From positions 818 to 64,817 of the forward strand of contig JAJZRE010000004.1 of assembly GCA_021802945.1 (NCBI GenBank): DNA of 64,000 bases, read 5' to 3'. This document shows, in pieces, positions 18,669-36,992 of the stretch. The stretch is from Pseudomonadota bacterium. GTDB taxonomy: Bacteria; Pseudomonadota; Gammaproteobacteria; Burkholderiales; Thiobacillaceae. The notes below the pieces were generated by a model, which was given only the letters and a program-made list of their open reading frames with translations, ran no database searches and was not told where the DNA came from. Position numbers and translations under genes: made by a program. Positions within the stretch are counted from its first letter, which is position 1. Each line of letters starts with the position of its first letter.

Positions 18669-19124
18669 TCAGGATCGCGGCCGCACCTGCGGCAGATCGC
18701 TCAGCCGGTACTGGCCGCGCTCGACCGCCTCGGCCAGATGGCCCAGGGTCAGGCCGCCAAGATAATCGAGCATCTCGTGCTTGACGCGCTTCCATTTGCG
18801 GTGGACCGGACAGGCCGTCTCGTCGCTGCATTGCTTGAGCCCGAGCAGGCATTCGCGTTCAACCCGGACGCCATCCAGCAGGAGAACGATATCGAGCAGG
18901 CTGGTCCGCTCCGCGCCGCCGCGCAGGATGAAGCCGCCGCGCCGGCCACGGGTCGAATCCAGGATATGCCACCGGCTAAGGTCCTGCAGGATCTTGGCCA
19001 GATAGGCCGTCGGCACGCCGAGGCTGCCGGCGATCTCGCGATTGAGTACCGGCTGGCCGCGCGGCTGAGTGGCCAGGTAGATCAGCGCCTGAATGGCGTA
19101 TTGGCTGGTGCGGGAGAAGATCAT
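18669..19124 (-). CDS. Rrf2-family Fe-S transcriptional regulator
   Basis: MIFSRTSQYAIQAL, STRGRRGGF, C-x6-C-x5-C-x2-H (CLLGLKQCSDETACPVH). Confidence 0.9.
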   Translation of the reverse strand: MIFSRTSQYAIQALIYLATQPRGQPVLNREIAGSLGVPTAYLAKILQDLSRWHILDSTRGRRGGFILRGGAERTSLLDIVLLLDGVRVERECLLGLKQCSDETACPVHRKWKRVKHEMLDYLGGLTLGHLAEAVERGQYRLSDLPQVRPRS

Positions 19125-19137
19125 GGTGTACAGCGAA

Positions 19138-19321
19138 GCAACGCGCATGCCACGCGCTGGCGCCCCGCCAGGCCGCGCCGGTGCTACTCGAACCGAACTG
19201 CCGCTTGTCGCAAACCCTACACTTCGTCCCGCGCTGTCCGACATGCGACACGGCACGCACGCCTGCCTTCCGCGTCTCAACCGCGTCCGGATGCCATTTG
19301 CCGTATCGGAACGCTTCTTGC
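19138..19321. promoter_or_regulatory. Divergent sigma54 promoters flanking two NifA UAS
   Basis: Minus TGGCAT-GCGCG-TTGC (19138-19152); plus CGGAAC-GCTTC-TTGC (19307-19321); TGT-N10-ACA at 19206-19221 and 19235-19250. Confidence 0.8.
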
Positions 19322-19360
19322 TGATGTCATGGCGTACGCACGACATCCAGGAGAGAAGCG

Positions 19361-19783
19361 ATGCAAATTGGCGTGGAGACCGCGAAGGCGGTGGACAACA
19401 AGCGGCTGTTCGTGGTGGCCGACGACGACATCACCCGCATGGCGCTGCAATTCATGCTGCACGACGAAAACGAGACGCACGACCTGCCGACGCTGGAAAC
19501 GGCATTCGACAAGAGCGTAGCCTGGAAGCCCGACCTGCTGCTGCTGGGCATCGACGTCGTGCAGGCGCGCGGCACCGACGTCCTGCTGCTGATCCGCTCT
19601 CGCCTGCCGCAAACGAAGCTCCTGCTGGTGGCGGACCGCCGCGACGACCCGCTGGTGGCCGCCTGCCAGAGCATCGGCATCGACGGTCTGCTGGTGAAGC
19701 CGCTGACGGTCGAGGACACGCGCCGCAAGGTCGACGGCATGCTGGGCCGCAGGCGCGCACCGATCCCGATCCATGCGCTATGA
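19361..19783 (+). CDS. Stand-alone receiver-like protein lacking the phospho-acceptor Asp
   Basis: FVVADDD, KPDLLLLG, GLLVKP. Confidence 0.8.
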   Translation: MQIGVETAKAVDNKRLFVVADDDITRMALQFMLHDENETHDLPTLETAFDKSVAWKPDLLLLGIDVVQARGTDVLLLIRSRLPQTKLLLVADRRDDPLVAACQSIGIDGLLVKPLTVEDTRRKVDGMLGRRRAPIPIHAL

Positions 19784-20589
19784 CCTTTGCCGCGCTGCGC
19801 GGGCACAGCACCAATCTGGTGGGCGTGCCCACCGGCCTCCTGGCGAGCGCGGCATTCAATGATTTCCCGCTGACGCTGCATATCCGCGGCGTGCACGAAA
19901 ACCATGCCCGGCTGTTTGACGGCCTGGCGATGGCCGGCAGCCAGGCCGAGGCGGGGCAGCTATTCCGGGACTATATGGACAATATTTTCGGCCTGCGGCA
20001 ACCAACCGTCGACTCGGGCGGCGTACGGCGTCACCACGCCAGCTATCTGCGCCTGCTCAAAGGCTGGGGCTACGACGCCAACAGCCGCGAGGGGGCCGTG
20101 GTGAAGGGGTGGGTGGAAAGCCGCTTCGGCCTGTTCCCGACCTTCCACAAGACGCCGCTCGCGCGCTTTGCCTCGCCGGCCTGGTCACGCTATGTGGAAG
20201 ACAAACTGTCCAGCCGCTTCCACAACAATGCCATCCACGCGCAACTGGACCTGCTGTATGAGTTCTGCCAAGGGTCGCTCGCTCGCTGGCTGCGACCGGG
20301 GCGGCGCCACCTCACCCTGTATCGGGGCATCAACGATTTCCGCGAGATCAGCCTGTCCGACCACATCCATTACCGCCGCGGTCATGCGCTGGTCAGGCTG
20401 AACAACGTCAGCTCGTTCACCGCCCGCCGCGACATCGCCTGCGAATTCGGCGACACCCTGCTCGAAGCGCAGGTGCCGACGGTCAAGATCCTGTTCTGCA
20501 ACGACCTGCTGCCGCGCCACACGCTGCAGGGCGAGGCGGAATACCTGGTTGTCGGCGGCGACTACCGCGTCACGGTCAGCACCTACTAG
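19780..20589 (+). CDS. draT: NAD(+)-dinitrogenase-reductase ADP-ribosyltransferase
   Basis: SYLRLLKGWGYDANSREGAVVKGWVESRFGL, LYRG, NNVSSF, FGD, GEAEYLVVGG. Confidence 0.93.
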   Translation: MTFAALRGHSTNLVGVPTGLLASAAFNDFPLTLHIRGVHENHARLFDGLAMAGSQAEAGQLFRDYMDNIFGLRQPTVDSGGVRRHHASYLRLLKGWGYDANSREGAVVKGWVESRFGLFPTFHKTPLARFASPAWSRYVEDKLSSRFHNNAIHAQLDLLYEFCQGSLARWLRPGRRHLTLYRGINDFREISLSDHIHYRRGHALVRLNNVSSFTARRDIACEFGDTLLEAQVPTVKILFCNDLLPRHTLQGEAEYLVVGGDYRVTVSTY

Positions 20590-24315: not shown

Positions 24316-25986
24316 TCAGGCAGCCACCCTCGCAGACCGGGCACGCCGCTGCCGGGTTGCCGACAGGGAAACCACGCGCGCTTCGCGGCGTGCAAGCGGC
24401 GCTGCCGTTCCCTGCACCAGCCTGAAGACGCCCACCAGTTCCGACAGTTTCTGCGCCTGCACCTGCATGCTCTCGGAAGCCGCCGCTGCCTCCTCGACCA
24501 GGGCGGCGTTCTGCTGCGTCATCTCGTCCATCTGCCCGACGGCCTGGTTGACCTGCTCGATGCCGGCGCTCTGCTCCTGACTCGCGGAGGCGATCTCGTT
24601 CATGATGTCGGCGACGCGCTTGACCGAGCCGACGATCTCGTTCATGGCCAAACCCGCTTCATCGACCAGCTTGCCGCCGGCGTCGACCTTGCCGACCGAG
24701 TCCTCGATCAGGGCCTTGATCTCCTTGGCGGCGCTCGCTGAGCGCTGCGCGAGATTCCTCACTTCGGTGGCGACGACGGCGAAGCCGCGGCCCTGTTCGC
24801 CGGCACGCGCGGCCTCGACCGCGGCGTTGAGCGCCAGGATGTTGGTCTGGAAGGCGATGCCGTCAATGACGCCGATGATGTCGGCGATTTTCTTCGAGCT
24901 CTCCTTGATCGAGGCCATGGTATCGACGACCTGGTGAACGACTTCTCCGCCCTTGACGGCGACGTCGGCGGTGGAGACGACGAGCCGGTTGGCCTGGTGT
25001 GCGTTCTCGGCGTTCTGCTTGACGGTGCTGGTCAGCTCTTCCATCGAGCTCGCGGTTTCCTCCAGGCTCGACGCCTGCGATTCGGTGCGGCTCGACAAAT
25101 CAGCGTTGCCGGAGGCGATCTCGCTGGCTCCGGTGTTGACGATTTCAGTGCTCTGCTTGATCTGCCCGACCAGCAGCTTGATGTTGATCTGCAGGATACG
25201 CAGCGCCTGCATCAGACCGGACACCTCTTCGGCGCCGCTGGCCACGATCCGTCCGGTCAGGTCGCCCGAACTCATGCGCGCGATATCCAGGCGGGCGTGT
25301 TCCAGGGGCACGACGACCAGGCGATAGCCCATGCCGGCAAACATTACGGCCAGCGGTACGCCCGCTGCGGCGATCGCCATCAGCCAGCCGGTGAACTGCT
25401 GATTGGCCTCGTTTGTAGCAAGCCAGGCCAGCACGCCCATCGCCACGAATATGACGGCCATCGAAACGGCGGCCAGCCCCAGGATCGCCTTCAGCGACAG
25501 ATTCAGTACGCCCGGGCAGCAACGCTGCAGGAAAGACGGCCTGATTGCATTGCCTTCATGAATGTGCAGCTGCTTGTCGCCTGCCCTGATGGCACGGTAG
25601 GCGGCCTCGGCGGCCTGAACCTGCTCCCGGCCGGGTTTGGTCCGGATCGAAGTATAGCCGACGACCTGGCCGTTTTCGATCAGGGGCGCGGCATTGGCCT
25701 CCACCCAGTAGTGGTCGCCGTTCTTGCAGCGGTTCTTCACCAGGCCGGTCCACGCCTTGCCGCTCTTGAGCGTGCTCCAGAAATCCGCGAATGCCTCCAC
25801 AGGCATGTCGGGGTGACGCACGATGTTCTGCGGCGCCCCCAGCAGTTCTTCCTCGCTGAAGCCGCTGATGTTGACAAAGTCCTGGTTGACGTAGGTGATG
25901 TTGCCGTGCAGGTCCGTCTTCGACACCACCGTTTCGCTGTCCTTCAGGACATATTCGACATTGGTCACTGGCAAATTGGTTCGCAT
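24316..25986 (-). CDS. aer: PAS-domain aerotaxis/energy-taxis chemoreceptor
   Basis: [35 protein letters not shown]; MCP core [27 protein letters not shown]. Confidence 0.92.
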
Positions 25987-26073
25987 AGCTGTGTCTTCCC
26001 ATAATTAATTATTGATTTCCCTACCCCTTTGCTCGGGGCCTGTTCGGCCGCTGTGTGAGCGGTTTCCCCGCAA

Positions 26074-26189
26074 GCAAACGACGTTCCAGCCAGAAAACTT
26101 TAATTAAGACACTGATTATTCGGCTATTTATTGACGATGCAGCGCCCCCGCACGCTGCATGCAAACAGCAAACGCACGCCGCTGGTGCA
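26074..26189 (-). promoter_or_regulatory. Sigma54 promoter of aer with an NtrC-like upstream box
   Basis: Minus TGGAAC-GTCGT-TTGC (26074-26088); GCAC-N7-GTGC at 26174-26188. Confidence 0.65.
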
Positions 26190-26197
26190 ACCGCCCC

Positions 26198-27064
26198 TCA
26201 GACGGCAACAGCCTCCCTCTCCAGCTGCTGCTCGCCGACCAACCGTTCTGCGAATTCGGCGAGGCTCATGTCGATGCGCGTGATGTTCTGCTCCTCGAGG
26301 AAGCGCGCCTCGTTGCGGCTGAGCTCGCCCGGCAGCACCGCCCAGTGCCTGTCCGAGGAACGCTTCATGATCTGGCGCGCGAAGGTGCGCTCCAGCTGAT
26401 TGCGGAAACGGCAGCCGAGAAACAGGAAATGGCGGCCGCTACGCAATTGCTGCACGATGTCCGGGATCGGCGTCTGGATGTCGATCTCGGTCAGCACCTC
26501 GACGAAGTCGGTGTCGGAGACCAGGAAGTTCTTGTCCGGCGCGATCGAGCCGAGCGGCTTGTAGAGCAGGGCCTCCCAGGTGTCGGCCTCGAACGGGTCG
26601 GCCTGCGCGCCGTTGTCGCGATAGTAGTGCGTCCAGGTACCGAAATGTTCGGACTGGCTCACCCCCTGCACCTGGCCAAGCAGGTTGCGCGACGCGAGCG
26701 CACCCGCCATGGCGTTGTCGTACCAGGCGTCGACGATCAGCAGCGGCTTGCGCACCATGCCCGCCAGGTAGTCGTGCAGCGGGGTCGGGGGCACGTCGAC
26801 GGCAAAGGCTTCCGCCATGAGCCCGACCAGGGTCTTGCGGTGCTTGAAGTTCTCGATGTACTGCGCGGCGGCGGTGAGGTTGCCGCGTATCTTGTGCGGC
26901 ACGCTCGACCTGGCCACCAGGCGCTGCACCAGCGCTTCCGGCGAATTGGGGACCGGGCTGCCGCCCGGCACCAGATCGAGCACCCCGGGCCCCAGATAGG
27001 GGACGACGCCGCCCTCTTCCAGGTGTGACGTGATCTCGCTCAGCAGGGCGTCAATCTGATCCAT
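26198..27064 (-). CDS. nif-associated SIR2-like (SIR2_2) protein
   Basis: VVPYLGPGV, IVDAWYDN, LYKPLGS and FLFLGCRF align with the SIR2_2 motif order. Confidence 0.75.
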   Translation of the reverse strand: MDQIDALLSEITSHLEEGGVVPYLGPGVLDLVPGGSPVPNSPEALVQRLVARSSVPHKIRGNLTAAAQYIENFKHRKTLVGLMAEAFAVDVPPTPLHDYLAGMVRKPLLIVDAWYDNAMAGALASRNLLGQVQGVSQSEHFGTWTHYYRDNGAQADPFEADTWEALLYKPLGSIAPDKNFLVSDTDFVEVLTEIDIQTPIPDIVQQLRSGRHFLFLGCRFRNQLERTFARQIMKRSSDRHWAVLPGELSRNEARFLEEQNITRIDMSLAEFAERLVGEQQLEREAVAV

Positions 27065-27077
27065 GATCGCTTCTCCT

Positions 27078-27293
27078 TTATGCCGCCGCCGATGACTTCA
27101 GCTCATCGACCTGGGCGCGCGACAGGCGGAACAGGGCACGCCCGCCGGACAGGGTCTCGTAGTTGTCCCGGGTCGAACTGGTCAGCAGGTTGAACCAGGC
27201 CTGCGCGCTGAGGGCACCGGGCCGCTCGCCGATTTCCGTCACCGTGCCGTTGGGCGCGAAACGGACGTGAATCATCACCTGATCTTTTTCCAT
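27078..27293 (-). CDS. Small nif-associated hypothetical protein
   Basis: IHVRFAPNGTVTEIGERP...QAWFNLL...LSGGR; RBS present; inside the nifB operon. Confidence 0.7.
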   Translation of the reverse strand: MEKDQVMIHVRFAPNGTVTEIGERPGALSAQAWFNLLTSSTRDNYETLSGGRALFRLSRAQVDELKSSAAA

Positions 27294-27317
27294 TGCTCTC
27301 TCCTAAGCGTGGATGGG

Positions 27318-27623
27318 TTAGAAGCCGGAACCGAAGCCCAGCAACTCGACTGTGACGTTCTCATTGCCCAGCTTGGCCTGGCAGGCCAGGCGCGACTTGG
27401 AGCCGACGCCGATGATGGTGTCGAGCTTTTCGTTTTCCACGCGCTGGACCTTGGACAGGCTCTTGCGCCCGTCGTGGACGAAGATGTGGCAGGACCCGCA
27501 TTCGGCCTTGCCGTCGCATTTGTGCGCGATCGGTTCGCCGGCGGCGAGCAGGGCTTCGAGGATGCTCATGCCCTCGACGGACGGGATGGTCTTGCCCGAG
27601 GGCTGGATGGTCAATACTGGCAT
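27318..27623 (-). CDS. [2Fe-2S] ferredoxin (adrenodoxin-type)
   Basis: HKCDGKAECGSCH, SRLACQ. Confidence 0.9.
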   Translation of the reverse strand: MPVLTIQPSGKTIPSVEGMSILEALLAAGEPIAHKCDGKAECGSCHIFVHDGRKSLSKVQRVENEKLDTIIGVGSKSRLACQAKLGNENVTVELLGFGSGF

Positions 27624-27661
27624 TTCACTGCTCCTTGCGTGTTTGGTTAATCGAAAGTACG

Positions 27662-28813
27662 TCATAGGTAGATGGCCGAGCCCGCGCCGATATTGATCGA
27701 TGCGTCCTTGGCGGTCTGGACGATGAAGCCGATCTGGTCTTCGACCAGATGGGCGTGAAAAGGCAGCGCGATGATGCGGTCGGCGACTTTCTCGGTGACC
27801 TTGAAGTCGCCCTTGCGATAGCCCAGGCCGGCGTAGAACGCCTGCAGGTGCTGCGGCTGGCAGTAGGCTGCGGCCTCGATCTTCTCGGTGGCGAGGTCGT
27901 TGACGATGGCGTCGCGGCTGCTCCTGGTGAAGCGCGTGCCGAGGTGCACCAGATAGAGGAACCAGTGCACTTCGGTCACGTCGGGGCCGATGTAGGGGTC
28001 CTTGATGCCCTCGAATGACTTCACGTAGTCGTAGTAGATCCGCTCGACGGCCTTGCGCCGTTCGAGAATCTGCTCGACGCGTCCGAGCTGGGTGAGCCCC
28101 AGTGCGGCGGTGGGTTCGTTCATGCCGGCCTGGTAAGGCACGCTGTTGCCGATCACCACGGAGAAGCGCTCGTCCAGCCTGCGGCTGCGCAGACTGCGAA
28201 TCCGGCTCGCCAGTTCGGCATCGTCGGTCAGCACCATGCCGCCCTCGCCGCAGGTCAACGCGCCCGGCTGGGAGAAATCGAACACGGCGACGTCGCCGAA
28301 GCCGCCGACCCGGCGCCCCTGGTAGGTCGAACCGATGGCTTCGGTGGAGTCCTCGATCAGGCGCAGTCCATGGCGGATGGCCATCTCGCGCAGCGCCGCC
28401 CACGGCGCCGGATGGCCGTTGGTGTTGCCGGCGAGGATGGCGCGGGTGTGCGGCGTGATCTTCTCCTCGACCTTTTCCGGCGCCAGCGTCCCCGACCAGT
28501 AGTCGATATCGGCGAACACCGGCGTCGCGCCCGCCAGCACGATGGCGTGCGCGATCTGGTGCCAGCTGTAGGGCGAGGCGATCACCTCGTCGCCCGGCCC
28601 GATGCCGATCGCCTTCAATGCCAGCAGCAGGCCCAGGGTGCCGCCGGCCACCGCCACGCCATGCCGACGGTCGGCGTACGCGGCGAAGGCGGACTCGAAC
28701 GCGGCAACGGCCGGCCCCTGGGAGAGGCGCGGCGACTTCAGCACGTCGACGACGGCATCCACCTCAAGGAGGCTGATGTCGGGGTCGGAAAGCGGGATCC
28801 AGCCTTGGTCCAT
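27662..28813 (-). CDS. DegT/DnrJ/EryC1/StrS-family protein
   Basis: IGPGDEVI, GATPVFADID, LIEDSTEAIG, GEGGMV, IALPFH. Confidence 0.88.
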   Translation of the reverse strand: MDQGWIPLSDPDISLLEVDAVVDVLKSPRLSQGPAVAAFESAFAAYADRRHGVAVAGGTLGLLLALKAIGIGPGDEVIASPYSWHQIAHAIVLAGATPVFADIDYWSGTLAPEKVEEKITPHTRAILAGNTNGHPAPWAALREMAIRHGLRLIEDSTEAIGSTYQGRRVGGFGDVAVFDFSQPGALTCGEGGMVLTDDAELASRIRSLRSRRLDERFSVVIGNSVPYQAGMNEPTAALGLTQLGRVEQILERRKAVERIYYDYVKSFEGIKDPYIGPDVTEVHWFLYLVHLGTRFTRSSRDAIVNDLATEKIEAAAYCQPQHLQAFYAGLGYRKGDFKVTEKVADRIIALPFHAHLVEDQIGFIVQTAKDASINIGAGSAIYL

Positions 28814-28822
28814 GACGGCTCC

Positions 28823-29083
28823 TCAGTGACGCGCGGCGACGACGACACCGGTCGCGGCCGCCGGATCGCCGGTCAGGCGCCAGCAGTGGCCGCGGCCGTC
28901 GACCAGGTAGAGGTTGAAGGACGGGTATTCGCGGTACGGCGCCTCGCCACCCATGTCGCCCGCGTCGCAGCGGGTGAGCGAGAGGCCGGGGAAGCGGCTG
29001 CGGAAATCGGCCAGCGGGTTGCCGCCCTGCGGCGGTTCCGCCAGCAGCTTGCCGATGCGCGCGAGATCGTCCGGGCTGATCAT
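28823..29083 (-). CDS. nif-associated small protein (DUF6129-like)
   Basis: RSRFPGLSLTRCD...LYLVDGRGHCWRLT..AATGVVVA. Confidence 0.7.
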   Translation of the reverse strand: MISPDDLARIGKLLAEPPQGGNPLADFRSRFPGLSLTRCDAGDMGGEAPYREYPSFNLYLVDGRGHCWRLTGDPAAATGVVVAARH

Positions 29084-29084
29084 G

Positions 29085-29294
29085 TCACTCCCCCAGGCGG
29101 CGTGCGTCGACCGTGATCGGCAGGGTCGTTTCCGCGGCCATGGCCGGCAGCTCCAGGCGCCAGCCGTTGGCCAGCGTGACGATGCCGCCCCACATGCCCG
29201 CCTGCTCCATCGCCACGATGGGCTCTTCGAGGTCCTTCTTCGGCACGTAGGCCGAGAGGGTTCCCTGCGCGTCTTTCCTGATCATGATCTTCAT
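29085..29294 (-). CDS. nifT: NifT/FixU protein
   Basis: MKIMIR, AYVPKKDLEEPIV, WGG, LANGW. Confidence 0.93.
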   Translation of the reverse strand: MKIMIRKDAQGTLSAYVPKKDLEEPIVAMEQAGMWGGIVTLANGWRLELPAMAAETTLPITVDARRLGE

Positions 29295-29320
29295 GCTGTT
29301 TCCTGGGGTTGAAAGTGGAT

Positions 29321-30466
29321 TTAGGCAGCTTCGGCGGTCATGCGCTGGATGACTGAACTCAAGGTGTCGAGCACCCGGTCGATTTCCGCCGCCGTCGTGT
29401 AGCGGCTGAGCGAAAACCGGATCGTCGCCCGCGCCTGTGCCTCGGTGAGGCCCATGGCCCGCAGGACGTGCGACGGCGCGCTGCCGGCGGCGGTGCACGC
29501 GGCACCGGACGACGCGCAGATGCCGGCGCGGTCGAGCTTGTCGAGGATCACCTCGGCCTCGAGTTCGCCGAAGCGCACGCTGCTGGTGTTGGCGACGCGT
29601 TCCGAGCGGCCGCCGTTGATGCTTGCCAAGGGGAAGCGCGCCAGCACGCCGGCCTCGAAGCGATCGCGCAGGGCGCTCATCGCCGCCGCCTTATCAAGCG
29701 CCTGCGCCGCGAGTTCGCACGCCACCCCCATGCCGACGATGCCCGGCACGTTCTCGGTGCCGCCGCGCCGGTTGCGTTCCTGGTGGCCGAACAGCATGGG
29801 TTGCAACTTCAGGCCCTTGCGCACGAACAGCGCGCCGACGCCCTTGGGCGCGTGCAGCTTGTGCCCGGACACCGACAGCAGGTCGGCCGGCAGCTGCGCG
29901 AGATCAATGGCGAGCTTGGCGGCCGCCTGCACCGCGTCGGTGTGGAACAGCGCGCCTTTCGACCGGGCCATGCGCGCGGCCTCGGCGACCGGAAACAGCA
30001 CGCCGGTTTCGTTGTTGGCCCACATCAGCGAGACCAGCGCGGTATCCGGCGTGATCGCGGTGTCCAGCGCGGCGAGATCGAGGCCACCGTTGGCGTCGAC
30101 CGGCAGGCGCGTCACCTGAACGCCCTGTGTTTCCAGCTGCGCCAGCAGGGCCAGCGTGGCCGGATGCTCGACCGCGCTGGTGACGATGTGGGTGCGGCCC
30201 GGGCGCGCCGCCAGCGCGCCGTGGATCGCCAGGTGATTGGACTCGGTGCCGCTGGCGGTGAACACGATCTCGGCCGGCGTCGCGTTCAGGAGCGTCGCCA
30301 CCGACGCGCGCGCCGCGATCACGCGCGACTTCGCCGCCTCGCCCACGGCGTGCTTGCTCGACGGATTGCCCCAGGACGCGCACAGGCATTCGAGCACCGG
30401 CGCCACGCATTCGGGCGCCACCGCCGTGGTGGCGTTGTTGTCGAGATAAACGGTGTGCTGCGTCAT
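29321..30466 (-). CDS. nifS: Cysteine desulfurase (NifS/IscS type)
   Basis: YLDNNATT, NPSS, HTDAVQ, SGHKLHAPKG, SSGAACT. Confidence 0.85.
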   Translation of the reverse strand: MTQHTVYLDNNATTAVAPECVAPVLECLCASWGNPSSKHAVGEAAKSRVIAARASVATLLNATPAEIVFTASGTESNHLAIHGALAARPGRTHIVTSAVEHPATLALLAQLETQGVQVTRLPVDANGGLDLAALDTAITPDTALVSLMWANNETGVLFPVAEAARMARSKGALFHTDAVQAAAKLAIDLAQLPADLLSVSGHKLHAPKGVGALFVRKGLKLQPMLFGHQERNRRGGTENVPGIVGMGVACELAAQALDKAAAMSALRDRFEAGVLARFPLASINGGRSERVANTSSVRFGELEAEVILDKLDRAGICASSGAACTAAGSAPSHVLRAMGLTEAQARATIRFSLSRYTTAAEIDRVLDTLSSVIQRMTAEAA

Positions 30467-30780
30467 GGCCAAAAAATCCGATCCGGGTCCTGGTTCAACA
30501 TCTGCAACAGCGCAGCCAGCGCGCCGAACTCTCCAAACAGCCTCCACTCGCTGCGCGCGTGGTCCTTGCGGTACAGACGCCAGCGCTGCAAGCCGCTCGC
30601 GTATTCCAGCCTGGCGATATCGATCACGCCGCCGGCCGGGTCGATATTGCGCGAGCAGCAGGGGCTCTCGATCCGGTAGCCGCCTTCCACGCCCCGCACT
30701 TCCGGGCTGACGTAGCGGTAGCGCGCGCGGGCTTCCAGCGCACGCTCGATGCGCTTGCGATCCACATCGTTCGGATGCAT
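30463..30780 (-). CDS. DUF3024-like nif-associated protein
   Basis: MHPNDVDRKRI, SPCCSRNID, DIARLEY, DPDRIFW. Confidence 0.7.
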   Translation of the reverse strand: MHPNDVDRKRIERALEARARYRYVSPEVRGVEGGYRIESPCCSRNIDPAGGVIDIARLEYASGLQRWRLYRKDHARSEWRLFGEFGALAALLQMLNQDPDRIFWP

Positions 30781-33531: not shown

Positions 33532-35091
33532 TCATGCGGCGATGTAGGCGCCCTGGCGGATGTCGGCGTCGCCGCGGGCGGCGTGCACGATTTCGCCGGA
33601 CTTCACTTTCGCCAGGTATTCCTTGAAGTACTTCACCGCGGACTGTTCGATAAATTCGTGCGCGTACTTGTCCACCGGGTCGATGCCCGCCGCCTTCAGG
33701 CTGTCTTTCGGGCAGCCGCCGATCTTGGCCACGAACACGGCGACGCAGTCGTTGATGGCACGGATCACGGTCGGCAGGGTGTCTTCCTCGCCGAAGCCGC
33801 CCTGGCAGTAGAGGTCGACGCGGCGATGGCCGACGAACTTGGAGCCTTCGGTGCTGAGTTCGTAGATCTGGAATTCCTGCGCATGCCCGAAGTGTTCGTT
33901 GATCCGCCCGTGGCCCTTGGTCGCGACGGCGATCAGAACCTTCACATCGCTGAACTCCGCCTCCAGGTCGGCCAGCTCGGCCTGCTTGGCCGCCACCGTG
34001 GCCTGGCGTTCCTGCTCCACCGCCGCCTGGTAGGCCTTGCGGCCTTCGAGGTCGTAATGAACGTCCATCGACTCGATCTTCTCGGTGGTGAACTCGGCGC
34101 TGCGGTCCTCGCCCAGCAGGCCGACGGCGTCGGCGCGGCACTGGCGGCAATGGCGCATCATGTTCATCTCGCCTTCGCACGAGTCCTGCAGCGCCTTGAG
34201 TTCCTGCGCGGTGGGGCCGCGCTGGCCGTTGAGGCCGAACACGGTGCCATGCTCCGGCGCGGAGATGAGCGGCATGATGTTGTGCAGGAAGGCGCCGCGC
34301 GACTTCACCGCCTTGTTCACCTCGACCAGGTGCTGGTCGTTGATGCCGGGGATCATCACCGAATTCACCTTGCACAGAATGCCGCGCTCGGTGAGCATCT
34401 CCAGGCCGCGCATCTGGTGTTCGTGCAGGATGCGCGCCGCATCGATGCCCTTCCAGCGCTTGTTCTTCCAGAAGATCCACGGGTAGATGTGCTGCCCGAC
34501 TTCGGGATCGACCATGTTGATGGTGATGGTGACGTGGTCGATGTTGTACTGGGAGAGACGCTCCACGTGCTCCGGCAGGGCGAGGCCGTTGGTCGACACG
34601 CACAGCTTGATGTCGGGCGCGGTCTGGGCCACCAGCTCGAAGGTCCTGAAGGTCTTTTCGGGATTGGCGAGTGGGTCCCCGGGGCCGGCGATGCCCAGCA
34701 CGGTCATCTGCGGAATGGTGGACGCGACCGCCAGCACCTTCTTCGCGGCCTGCTCGGGGGTGAGCTTCTCGCTCACCACGCCGGGTCGCGATTCGTTGGC
34801 GCAGTCGTACTTGCGGTTGCAGTAGTTGCACTGGATGTTGCAGGCCGGCGCCACCGCCACATGCATGCGCGCGAAGTGATGGTGCGCTTCTTCGCTGTAG
34901 CAGGGATGGTTCTTGACCTTCTCCCAGATGGCCGGATCCATGTCTTCCGGGCCGCCCGACGAGCCGCAACTCGCCTTGCCGCCCTCGCCGGAAGTGCCGC
35001 AGCCCTTGTGCTCGGCCACTTGCTGCATGACTTCTTCCATCGACTTGGGCCGATCGGCCCCTGTGCTCACACCACCTGCATGACTGTTCAT
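33532..35091 (-). CDS. nifB: FeMo-cofactor biosynthesis radical SAM protein
   Basis: [31 protein letters not shown]; C-terminal NifX-like domain; start must lie downstream of the promoter at 35171. Confidence 0.97.
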
Positions 35092-35170
35092 ACCTGGCTC
35101 CCGTCTGTGTCCATCGATAGCGGTCGCCGGTGCGGCCGACCGTTGAATGGGTTCGTACAGGAGCCTTTCA

Positions 35171-35297
35171 GCAACAAGCATGCCATGCGGGAAATTCACG
35201 GAAAGGCTCGAAAGACAAGGACTTGCGGAGATTTACGGTTTGTCGCAACTGTGACAAACCGGGCGCTCAAGCGGGGGGAATTGTCGGGAACGTTACA
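35171..35297 (-). promoter_or_regulatory. Sigma54 promoter of nifB with two NifA UAS
   Basis: Minus TGGCAT-GCTTG-TTGC (35171-35185); TGT-N10-ACA at 35241-35256 and 35282-35297. Confidence 0.9.
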
Positions 35298-35369
35298 GCC
35301 TGGGGCGATGAGTGGTGATGGATGATGCCCCGGGATTTACCATTTACTATTTACTATTCACCCATCGCC

Positions 35370-36992
<1,623 letters not shown>

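Follow-up and report, generated by a model that had tools for sequence, protein, structure and literature searches.

The window (the whole 64,000-nucleotide stretch of DNA that was analysed) comes from a Thiobacillus-like, metagenome-assembled genome. The five genes considered here close a NifA/sigma-54 nifB operon of 15 genes, and all five ORFs are confirmed on the minus strand. Upstream of nifB lie a sigma-54 (-24/-12) promoter motif, TGGCATGCTTGTTGCT (35170..35185, minus strand), and, about 55-115 bp beyond it, two NifA-type TGT-N10-ACA sites (at about 35240-35300), in agreement with a preliminary description of this DNA that had placed the genes at the end of a nifB operon behind such a promoter. 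The operon opens with nifB (33532..35091, minus strand), coding for a protein with radical SAM and Nitro_FeMo-Co domains, and the interval between nifB and nifS holds fdxN, a HesB/IscA-like gene, genes for a TPR protein and for an LRV Fe-S protein, two nifZ genes and a DUF3024 gene. They are followed by nifS (cysteine desulfurase; 29321..30466, minus strand) and nifT/fixU (29085..29294, minus strand; TIGR02934, 2.7e-33), whose stop codon lies 1 nt away from the beginning of a gene for a DUF6129-like protein of 86 aa (28823..29083, minus strand). Next come the genes for a protein of the DegT/DnrJ/EryC1 fold (27662..28813, minus strand; 383 aa), an adrenodoxin/ISC-type [2Fe-2S] ferredoxin (27318..27623, minus strand; 101 aa), a conserved protein of 71 aa, here orf71, that matches no known family (27078..27293, minus strand), and a stand-alone SIR2_2 protein of the Msi351 family (26198..27064, minus strand; 288 aa). 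From nifB through the SIR2-like gene all genes lie on one strand with short gaps throughout, and a terminator-like hairpin with a T-rich tail (26173..26189, minus strand), 9 nt past the SIR2-like stop codon, probably marks the end of the operon. Contigs of a soil metatranscriptome (X19) match parts of the stretch, for example a 229-nt piece with 2 differences that spans the DegT-like/ferredoxin junction (27515-27743) and a contig piece that spans the nifT/DUF6129 junction; because DNA may be present in an RNA library and the contigs derive from relatives, they are not counted as proof of transcription.

The five genes had been described as a single module, a view that the orthologous loci do not sustain: they form two units, one consisting of the DUF6129-like, DegT-like, ferredoxin and orf71 genes, the other of nifT and the SIR2-like gene. 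In 80/80 loci the DUF6129-like gene immediately precedes the DegT-like gene; the ferredoxin is found in 72 of these loci, orf71 in 66 and NifT in 74. In alphaproteobacteria the SIR2-like gene is immediately 3' of nifT and the DegT-like quartet lies about 6 kb off, and rhizobia have the nifT-SIR2 pair but not the DegT-like gene; the ancestral neighbor of the SIR2-like protein is NifT. In Beta- and Gammaproteobacteria, including the window, the quartet sits between nifT and the SIR2-like gene. Even the quartet is not obligate, since some orthologous loci that retain NifT, the DegT-like and the SIR2-like protein do without the ferredoxin, orf71 or, in one case, DUF6129. Among 38 nifH-positive genomes, all 9 that harbor the DegT-like gene also have the Trp-type SIR2 protein described below, as do 3/3 acidobacterial genomes. 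A search for fused DegT-like proteins of 672-2000 residues at E <= 1e-80 came up empty, evidence that the tool grades as weak, and there was no in-frame DUF6129-DegT-like fusion in seven more distant loci, despite long stop-to-stop frames.

The DUF6129-like protein has conserved Cys39, His66 and Cys67 (RCD...DHC); it scores 21.9 bits against DUF6129 (PF19624), whose gathering cut-off is 23.6, and 13/21 orthologues match the profile at E <= 0.01 (best 2.8e-6). In the searched literature DUF6129 appears in one preprint only, and in the ESM Atlas orf71 falls into unnamed clusters only. The ferredoxin shares the Fer2 domain and the ligand pattern Cys-x5-Cys-x2-Cys...Cys with the ISC-type, adrenodoxin-like Fdx, and its score against the housekeeping fdx_isc equivalog TIGR02007 is 69.7 bits, under the cut-off of 132.1; it is a nif-operon paralogue. 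The preliminary description had also proposed complex modelling among the five proteins. For the DegT-like dimer with DUF6129 this gave a score of 0.54 (best of 3 controls 0.00), with at least 93% of contacts shared between runs and a partner pLDDT of at least 80. That mark is reached by 58/80 solved complexes and 2/110 mismatched pairs; at 0.60 or under, just 7 of these solved complexes reach it, as do both of the passing mismatches. The tool grades the prediction as weak support for binding of DUF6129 by the DegT-like dimer.

The DegT-like protein matches Pfam DegT_DnrJ_EryC1 (PF01041) above the cut-off (1.5e-91, positions 7-357 of 360). Its AF2 model (pLDDT 92) has the fold of the DegT-family nucleotide-sugar aminotransferases Per (PDB 3bn1/3dr4) and ArnB (TM 0.90 to 3bn1, 34% identity), with which it also shares the Asp facing the pyridine nitrogen, the GEGG motif and the full-length Pfam match. 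In the phmmer alignment to GDP-perosamine synthase (Per), FDFSQPGALTCGEGG of the query stands opposite FSFFGNKIITTGEGG, so that the Schiff-base residue Per Lys186 pairs with Gly184; the motif and the missing Lys that had been noted are therefore both real. At the equivalent position, 81 orthologues have G/S/F/L and a further 7, which are more distant, have S/A/G/Q; neither Lys nor His occurs there among the 88. The closest outgroups, at about 40% identity, retain FYPNKQITTGEGG including the Lys, which is found in 87/97 outgroup representatives. Unlike in Per and ArnB, the Lys loop reads FDFSQP[GS], the Ser of the Per FSF motif being replaced by an invariant Asp, the N-Y-R of the canonical NYRM is Q-A-G, and GNxNGHPAxW takes the place of PVHxxG. 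FDFSQP, GNxNGHPAxW and His89 are fixed specifically in this clade, as is an extra conserved C-terminal tail, NxGAGxAIY, that is absent from the outgroups; clade-specific fixed residues number 36, the tail included. The protein is confined to nif clusters. Between members from Beta-, Gamma- and Alphaproteobacteria and Acidobacteriota its identity is 64-70%, and its dN/dS is 0.10-0.25 (0.12-0.37 for NifS of the same operon). The DegT-like proteins form an ancient, nif-restricted paralogue clade in which the catalytic Lys was replaced at the base and purifying selection followed.

The loss of the family Lys need not make the protein inert. Asp155, the family's residue for binding the PLP pyridine nitrogen, shows no variation in either the clade or its outgroups, the SGT loop is mostly retained (Thr59 in 71/81) and so is the stacking aromatic; for Per, ArnB and WbpE, the PDB lists Lys-to-Ala variants in complex with PLP or a sugar ligand. 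Non-covalent binding of PMP or PLP, and hence catalysis, is therefore possible. ColD and E1 (CDP-6-deoxy-L-threo-D-glycero-4-hexulose-3-dehydrase) are natural Lys-less, PMP-dependent dehydratases of the DegT family, in which His replaces the Lys, and E1 partners the [2Fe-2S] reductase E3. By the same logic, the DegT-like protein could still be an enzyme that uses non-covalent PMP/PLP and electrons from the ferredoxin, whose gene adjoins it in 72/80 loci, to make or modify a small molecule for nitrogen fixation. E1 (3bb8) is a detectable, if only distant, relative (E = 4e-28, N-terminal half). The mean consensus frequency is also higher in the cleft loops (0.856) than elsewhere in the protein (0.756; permutation p = 0.0005), for which reason a rewritten ligand or cofactor site, possibly a catalytic one, is an option for this protein. 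The label of pseudo-enzyme given to it earlier holds insofar as catalytic residues of the family are gone, but the protein may still be active. Nevertheless, we regard an enzymatic role of this kind as unlikely. The Lys-equivalent position is variable, with a consensus frequency of only 0.53 at residue 184, and is never occupied by the His of ColD and E1; the invariant Asp in the FSF motif and the Q-A-G in NYRM depart from the canonical residues; and the nearest relatives are aminotransferases rather than dehydratases. Only Cys188 (77/81) and Cys318 (66/81) are conserved, so the protein has no E1-type cluster of its own, which takes four Cys ligands. Finally, the ferredoxin is absent from several orthologous loci that retain the DegT-like gene and is thus dispensable in some lineages, in contrast to the E1/E3 pair.

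The SIR2-like protein matches Pfam SIR2_2 (PF13289) above the cut-off (5e-21). A single-sequence phmmer search against the PDB gave chance-level matches only, such as levansucrase, and a profile of the orthologues was therefore needed; aligned to ThsA, it places Trp114 on the catalytic Asn112 (of TTNYD) and Leu171 on the catalytic His152. The model (pLDDT 88) has its best structural matches by Foldseek in the anti-phage SIR2 NADases DSR2, ThsA and KomC (E about 1e-10, TM 0.6-0.66), with which it has the SIR2_2 fold in common. It is a stand-alone protein of roughly the size of KomC and, in contrast to these three, has no sensor domain, carries Trp in place of the Asn in every orthologue and, in the window, Leu in place of the His, and has its fixed genomic place within nif operons, not defence islands. 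An origin of the gene from a defence island was considered and rejected because of this fixed nif synteny. The DAWYD and YKPLGS motifs described earlier are present and Trp occupies the Asn position in 69/69 orthologues; the proposed absence of NADase residues is less general for the His, which is kept in 16/69, all alphaproteobacterial, and in the rhizobial protein of R. etli, and is L/M/I/V/F in 53/69. The loss of this His is lineage-specific. The family has a near-invariant motif, SDxD[YF]VEVLTEIDIQTPIP, and a dN/dS of 0.09-0.33, to be compared with the NifS range given above. The SIR2-like proteins likewise form an ancient, nif-restricted paralogue clade, with Trp for the catalytic Asn since its base and purifying selection after.

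Nif-linked "sirtuin-like" ORFs of this family have already been noted: Msi351 of M. loti, Rcc03262 of R. capsulatus and ZMO1821 of Z. mobilis. The SIR2-like protein is an orthologue of the rhizobial Msi351. The R. etli protein, in a nifB-fdxN-nifZ-nifT-SIR2 position, is 49% identical to that of the window and shares the Trp and TEIDIQTPIP. Unlike the Msi351 type, the window and other Beta- and Gammaproteobacteria do not have the His, and the DegT-like quartet is inserted after nifT. In M. loti, msi351 is regulated by NifA and a mutant is Fix+ (PMC3538637), and the Rcc03262 protein was detected solely with NifA present (PMC6925177). For the Lys-less, nif-linked DegT-like protein, literature searches pairing DegT or DnrJ with nif returned no relevant paper. 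The nif-linked loci and the literature thus bear out the earlier statement that such genes recur in nif clusters without an assigned function.

The SIR2-like protein might still use NAD+, at least in its His-bearing alphaproteobacterial form, as an ADP-ribosyltransferase, a deacylase of Nif proteins or an NADase with alternative residues. It retains the overall fold, the Gly-rich loop YLGPGV and, from TTNYD, the Tyr-Asp, and one preprint proposes that nif-linked SIR2_2 proteins may deacetylate lysines. We consider such an activity unlikely, since the Trp is universal at the Asn position, where the PDB sequence 8bto, labelled "NAD(+) hydrolase ThsA", has Ala, since the His is missing from most orthologues with overall constraint undiminished, and since the msi351 mutant still fixes nitrogen in symbiosis.

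A further proposal was that the module acts as a sensor of NAD/ADP-ribose, PLP/amino acid or redox state, with an output to the DraT/DraG switch-off of nitrogenase. In the window, draT and draG are indeed found at a distance of about 5 kb from the module, and ADP-ribose or NAD are conceivable ligands of a SIR2 fold. However, DraT (PF07357) was found in only 16/40 module-bearing genomes, which makes the link unlikely; it was not found in module-bearing isolates of Xanthobacter, Azorhizobium, Bradyrhizobium, Methylocapsa, Ferrovum and Niveispirillum, and a 10.7-kb stretch of the R. etli symbiotic plasmid has nifT-SIR2 with no draT or draG annotated. We therefore give this proposal a very low probability. 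A reading of the substitutions as decay that set in recently and in this strain alone, turning ordinary enzymes into incipient pseudogenes, has nothing in its favor besides the missing residues themselves and can practically be discarded: the orthologue alignment proposed in the preliminary description shows the substitutions in 88 DegT-like and 69 SIR2-like proteins across phyla, dN/dS is about 0.1-0.3, the frames are intact and synteny is conserved.

Since both proteins are tightly conserved in nitrogen fixers despite their lost catalytic residues, we take them to be nitrogenase helpers rather than broken genes and propose, with some confidence, that they are binding or redox accessory factors repurposed for nitrogenase maturation. 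In this proposal neither protein would run the reaction of its family (sugar transamination for DegT, NAD+ hydrolysis for SIR2). The DegT-like homodimer would keep the cofactor cleft with a rewritten lining and may offer a platform on which a ligand or a partner, probably DUF6129, binds, with the ferredoxin connected to it for electron transfer; the SIR2-like protein may bind a nucleotide, or else NifT, the DegT-like tail or a similar partner, with no cleavage. Both would be accessory factors, dispensable in the laboratory, that aid the maturation or maintenance of the nitrogenase metalloclusters in aerobic and microaerobic diazotrophs, act independently of DraT/DraG and occur mostly in nif clusters devoid of three-domain NifU. 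As a whole, this is the best explanation at hand, which we put forward tentatively.

The distribution of NifU touches on the last of these features. Full-length NifU was found in 2/41 module-bearing genomes and, among the 38 nifH-positive genomes, in 2/9 with the DegT-like gene and 19/29 without it. Both are absent from 10 of the nifH-positive genomes, so that this suggestive anti-correlation is non-exclusive, and, the genomes being related, it may only mirror the lineage of the nif cluster. The Fdx of the ISC system is known to dock on IscS, a fold-type-I enzyme. By analogy, the DUF6129-DegT-like-ferredoxin-orf71 unit could form a platform for Fe-S or cofactor assembly and repair on a dead aminotransferase fold, replacing the redox and scaffold role of the NifU central domain in clusters devoid of three-domain NifU, with the Trp-type SIR2 protein as a nucleotide-gated partner; we hold this specific version to be quite doubtful.

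The transfer of nitrogenase to new hosts relies on a minimal nif list from Klebsiella and Azotobacter. Two strongly constrained proteins, whose dN/dS is no higher than that of NifS, are encoded in the nifB operons of numerous aerobic chemolithotrophic, methanotrophic and free-living diazotrophs of the Alpha-, Beta- and Gammaproteobacteria and Acidobacteriota. Their annotations as "perosamine synthetase" and "NAD-dependent protein deacylase" are contradicted by the residue evidence. Knowledge of the ligands of both proteins could expose a missing step of cluster maturation or protection in NifU-poor systems, and the pair would provide clean cases of enzyme folds reused after the loss of catalytic residues.

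The last genes of a long nif operon were identified on the minus strand of the window. Downstream of nifA (35370-36992) and nifB (33532-35091), genes for FdxN, a HesB/IscA-like protein, a TPR protein, an LRV Fe-S protein, two NifZ and a DUF3024 protein precede nifS (29321-30466) and nifT (29085-29294). They are followed by genes for a DUF6129-like protein (86 aa, 28823-29083), a DegT-fold protein (DegT-like, 383 aa, 27662-28813), a [2Fe-2S] ferredoxin (101 aa, 27318-27623), a 71-aa ORF (orf71, 27078-27293) and a SIR2_2 protein (SIR2-like, 288 aa, 26198-27064). Gaps between these last six genes, from nifT onwards, are 1, 9, 38, 24 and 13 nt. From nifA to the SIR2-like gene, this strand has a single exact sigma-54 motif (35185-35170); it lies upstream of nifB and is itself preceded by two TGT-N10-ACA sites. 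A terminator-like hairpin is present 9 nt past the SIR2-like stop codon. Promoter motif, gaps and hairpin fit the placement of these genes at the end of the nifB operon in the preliminary description, and we infer that the genes from nifB to SIR2 are co-transcribed. The nif operon is followed directly by a gene for a PAS-MCP chemoreceptor (24316-25986, minus strand), which is preceded by a one-mismatch sigma-54-like motif, TGGAACGTCGTTTGCT (26073-26088, minus strand); its product is a possible receptor for aerotaxis or energy taxis coupled to nif.

The DegT-like protein matches Pfam DegT_DnrJ_EryC1 (1.5e-91), and its AF2 model (pLDDT 92) superposes on GDP-perosamine synthase (Per) with a TM score of 0.90. 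A phmmer alignment sets FSFFGNKIITTGEGG of Per opposite FDFSQPGALTCGEGG, so that the Schiff-base Lys186 of Per corresponds to Gly184. We gathered 80 orthologous loci (64-96% identity) in species-representative genomes of Thiobacillus, Sulfuricella, Ferrovum, Gallionella, Methyloglobulus, Xanthobacter, Azorhizobium, Bradyrhizobium, Methylocapsa, Niveispirillum and Acidobacteriota. The Lys position is occupied by G, S, F or L in 81/81 sequences, within a nearly invariant FDFSQP, and by S, A, G or Q in seven more distant orthologues (50-63% identity). The closest outgroups (around 40% identity) have the canonical FYPNKQITTGEGG and keep the Lys. The loss of this residue, already noted from the sequence, is thus ancient and fixed. 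The clade is tight and isolated, since identities in a 50%-clustered library drop to around 40%, save for one full-length representative at 59% and short fragments.

The clade has 36 fixed positions whose residues are rare in the outgroups, among them His89 (Asn in outgroups), GNxNGHPAxW (PVHxxG in outgroups) and Asp179 (Ser in the FSF motif of Per), and N-Y-R of the canonical NYRM motif is changed to Q-A-G. Asp155, the pyridine nitrogen ligand, is invariant, and the SGT loop is mostly retained. The protein may still bind PMP or PLP non-covalently; the PDB lists mutants of Per, ArnB and WbpE in which the Lys is replaced by Ala and PLP or a sugar ligand is bound. The main rival reading, an enzyme of the PMP type that works without the Lys and is wired to the ferredoxin, appears unlikely. 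Conservation is higher in the loops that line the cofactor cleft of family members (0.856) than in the remainder of the protein (0.756; permutation p = 0.0005); within its loop, position 184 (0.53) is among the least conserved. The dN/dS against 11 relatives is 0.10-0.25, lower than the 0.12-0.37 of NifS, a genuine enzyme of the same operon. Taken with the fixed clade residues, these values argue for a cleft repurposed under constraint, and decay is rejected.

The clade also has a C-terminal tail, NxGAGxAIY, with no counterpart in the outgroups. In full (27662-27700, residues 370-383) it reads D[AS]S[VI]N[VI]GAG[AS]AIY(L), is nearly invariant down to 50% identity, is missing from canonical DegT enzymes and is of low confidence in the model; it may be a docking peptide. 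Predicting the DegT-like dimer together with DUF6129 gave a score of 0.54 (best of three controls, 0.00); the passing mark is reached by 58/80 solved complexes and 2/110 mismatched pairs, and of the solved complexes just 7 of 80 pass with 0.60 or less, as do both mismatches. The runs share at least 93% of contacts, with a partner pLDDT of at least 80, and the modelling weakly suggests a complex. DUF6129 orthologues share RCD...DHC, in which Cys67 is invariant and Cys39 and His66 are conserved in at least 90%.

The SIR2-like protein matches Pfam SIR2_2 (5e-21), and its model (pLDDT 88) is closest to DSR2, ThsA and KomC. A profile of 26 orthologues matches the NADase ThsA, with Trp114 at catalytic Asn112 and Leu171 at His152. 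Trp114 is found in 69/69 orthologues, making the replacement of the catalytic Asn, like the Lys loss, ancient and fixed; position 171 is variable (L 32, H 16, M 9, I 6, V 4, F 2), and the His-bearing proteins (16/16) are all alphaproteobacterial. Model confidence is low only at residues 188-196, which fall within the near-invariant motif SDxDYVEVLTEIDIQTPIP and would fit a segment that orders upon binding. This motif, the Trp and a His are present in a protein with 49% identity from the R. etli symbiotic plasmid, where the order is nifA-nifB-fdxN-nifZ-nifT-“SIR2 family protein”; the SIR2-like protein belongs to the Msi351 family. According to passages of published accounts, an R. capsulatus nifA mutant lacks the Rcc03262 protein, whose gene adjoins that of NifT (PMC6925177), nif-linked SIR2 genes also occur in Z. 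mobilis and Thalassolituus, and a preprint proposes deacetylation for such proteins. The recurrence of nif-linked SIR2 is therefore already on record; the passages on these genes make no mention of the Asn-to-Trp replacement. Another SIR2_2 subfamily, distant from the SIR2-like protein of the window (26-30% identity), is present in 13/38 nifH-positive genomes, for example at locus L106 (G383:C10:41564-42364), around 1-4 kb from nifH in 10 of the 13; the one protein inspected retains the catalytic Asn (DINRD) and has Met at the His position. Both catalytic residues together were found in no nif-linked SIR2 protein examined.

In 80/80 loci the DegT-like gene directly follows that of DUF6129; the ferredoxin is found in 72 of them, orf71 in 66 and NifT in 74. 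Searches for fused forms found none. The order is nifS-nifT-[DUF6129-DegT-like-Fdx-orf71]-SIR2 in Beta- and Gammaproteobacteria and DegT-like-SIR2-Fdx in Gallionella-like loci. In Xanthobacter, Azorhizobium and Bradyrhizobium the bracketed quartet lies around 6 kb downstream of nifS-nifT-SIR2, in Acidobacteriota (3/3) the DegT-like and SIR2 genes are around 18 kb apart on the contig, and minimal loci consist of NifT-DegT-like-SIR2. Rhizobia have nifT-SIR2 without the DegT-like gene, and Trp-type SIR2 is present in all DegT-like-bearing genomes checked (9/9 in the class sample, 3/3 Acidobacteriota), indicating two units with a one-way dependence: in these genomes the DegT-like unit never occurs without the NifT/SIR2 unit. 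The “pseudo-enzyme module” proposed earlier is right in part: the missing catalytic residues stand, a single obligate module does not.

An orthologue is carried by only 2/24 congeners searched. Metagenomes of mine drainage, sediment and coal, drawn from several studies, contain DNA near-identical to positions 26000-30600 (0.88-0.96 of sampled words). The locus of a Hyphomicrobiaceae MAG (L016, 96% identity) is near-identical to those of Thiobacillus, and that of a Chitinivibrionia MAG (L057) has the gene offsets and identities of a Rhodomicrobium locus (L058); both contigs are probably in the wrong genome bin.

Genes for DraT and DraG are both present in the window, Rrf2, DraT and DraG being confirmed by Pfam. 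The DraT domain covers residues 240-494 of a 498-aa frame (19093-20589, plus strand), of which the preliminary description had seen the upstream receiver-like part. Although both genes are at hand here, the suggestion that the module feeds DraT/DraG switch-off is disfavored by the presence of DraT in only 16/40 genomes with the module; searches of the isolate genomes of Xanthobacter, Azorhizobium, Bradyrhizobium, Methylocapsa, Ferrovum and Niveispirillum detected none. Three-domain NifU (TIGR02000 above cut-off) is present in 2/41 module-bearing genomes. Among the 38 nifH-positive genomes of a 400-genome class sample, it occurs in 2/9 with the DegT-like gene vs 19/29 without, an anti-correlation that is a lead rather than proof, given the relatedness of the genomes and the ten that have neither. 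The source of the window, a Thiobacillus-like metagenome-assembled genome (2.55 Mb, 87.6% complete), has no three-domain NifU above this cut-off. It harbors two IscU-like genes (contigs C71, 9439-9810, and C23, 72767-73135), and the nifB operon instead carries HesB/IscA, LRV, TPR and two nifZ genes.

We tentatively favor, at somewhat less than even confidence, a reading in which the DegT-like and SIR2-like proteins would be accessory factors in nitrogenase maturation or maintenance, repurposed for non-canonical binding or redox roles.
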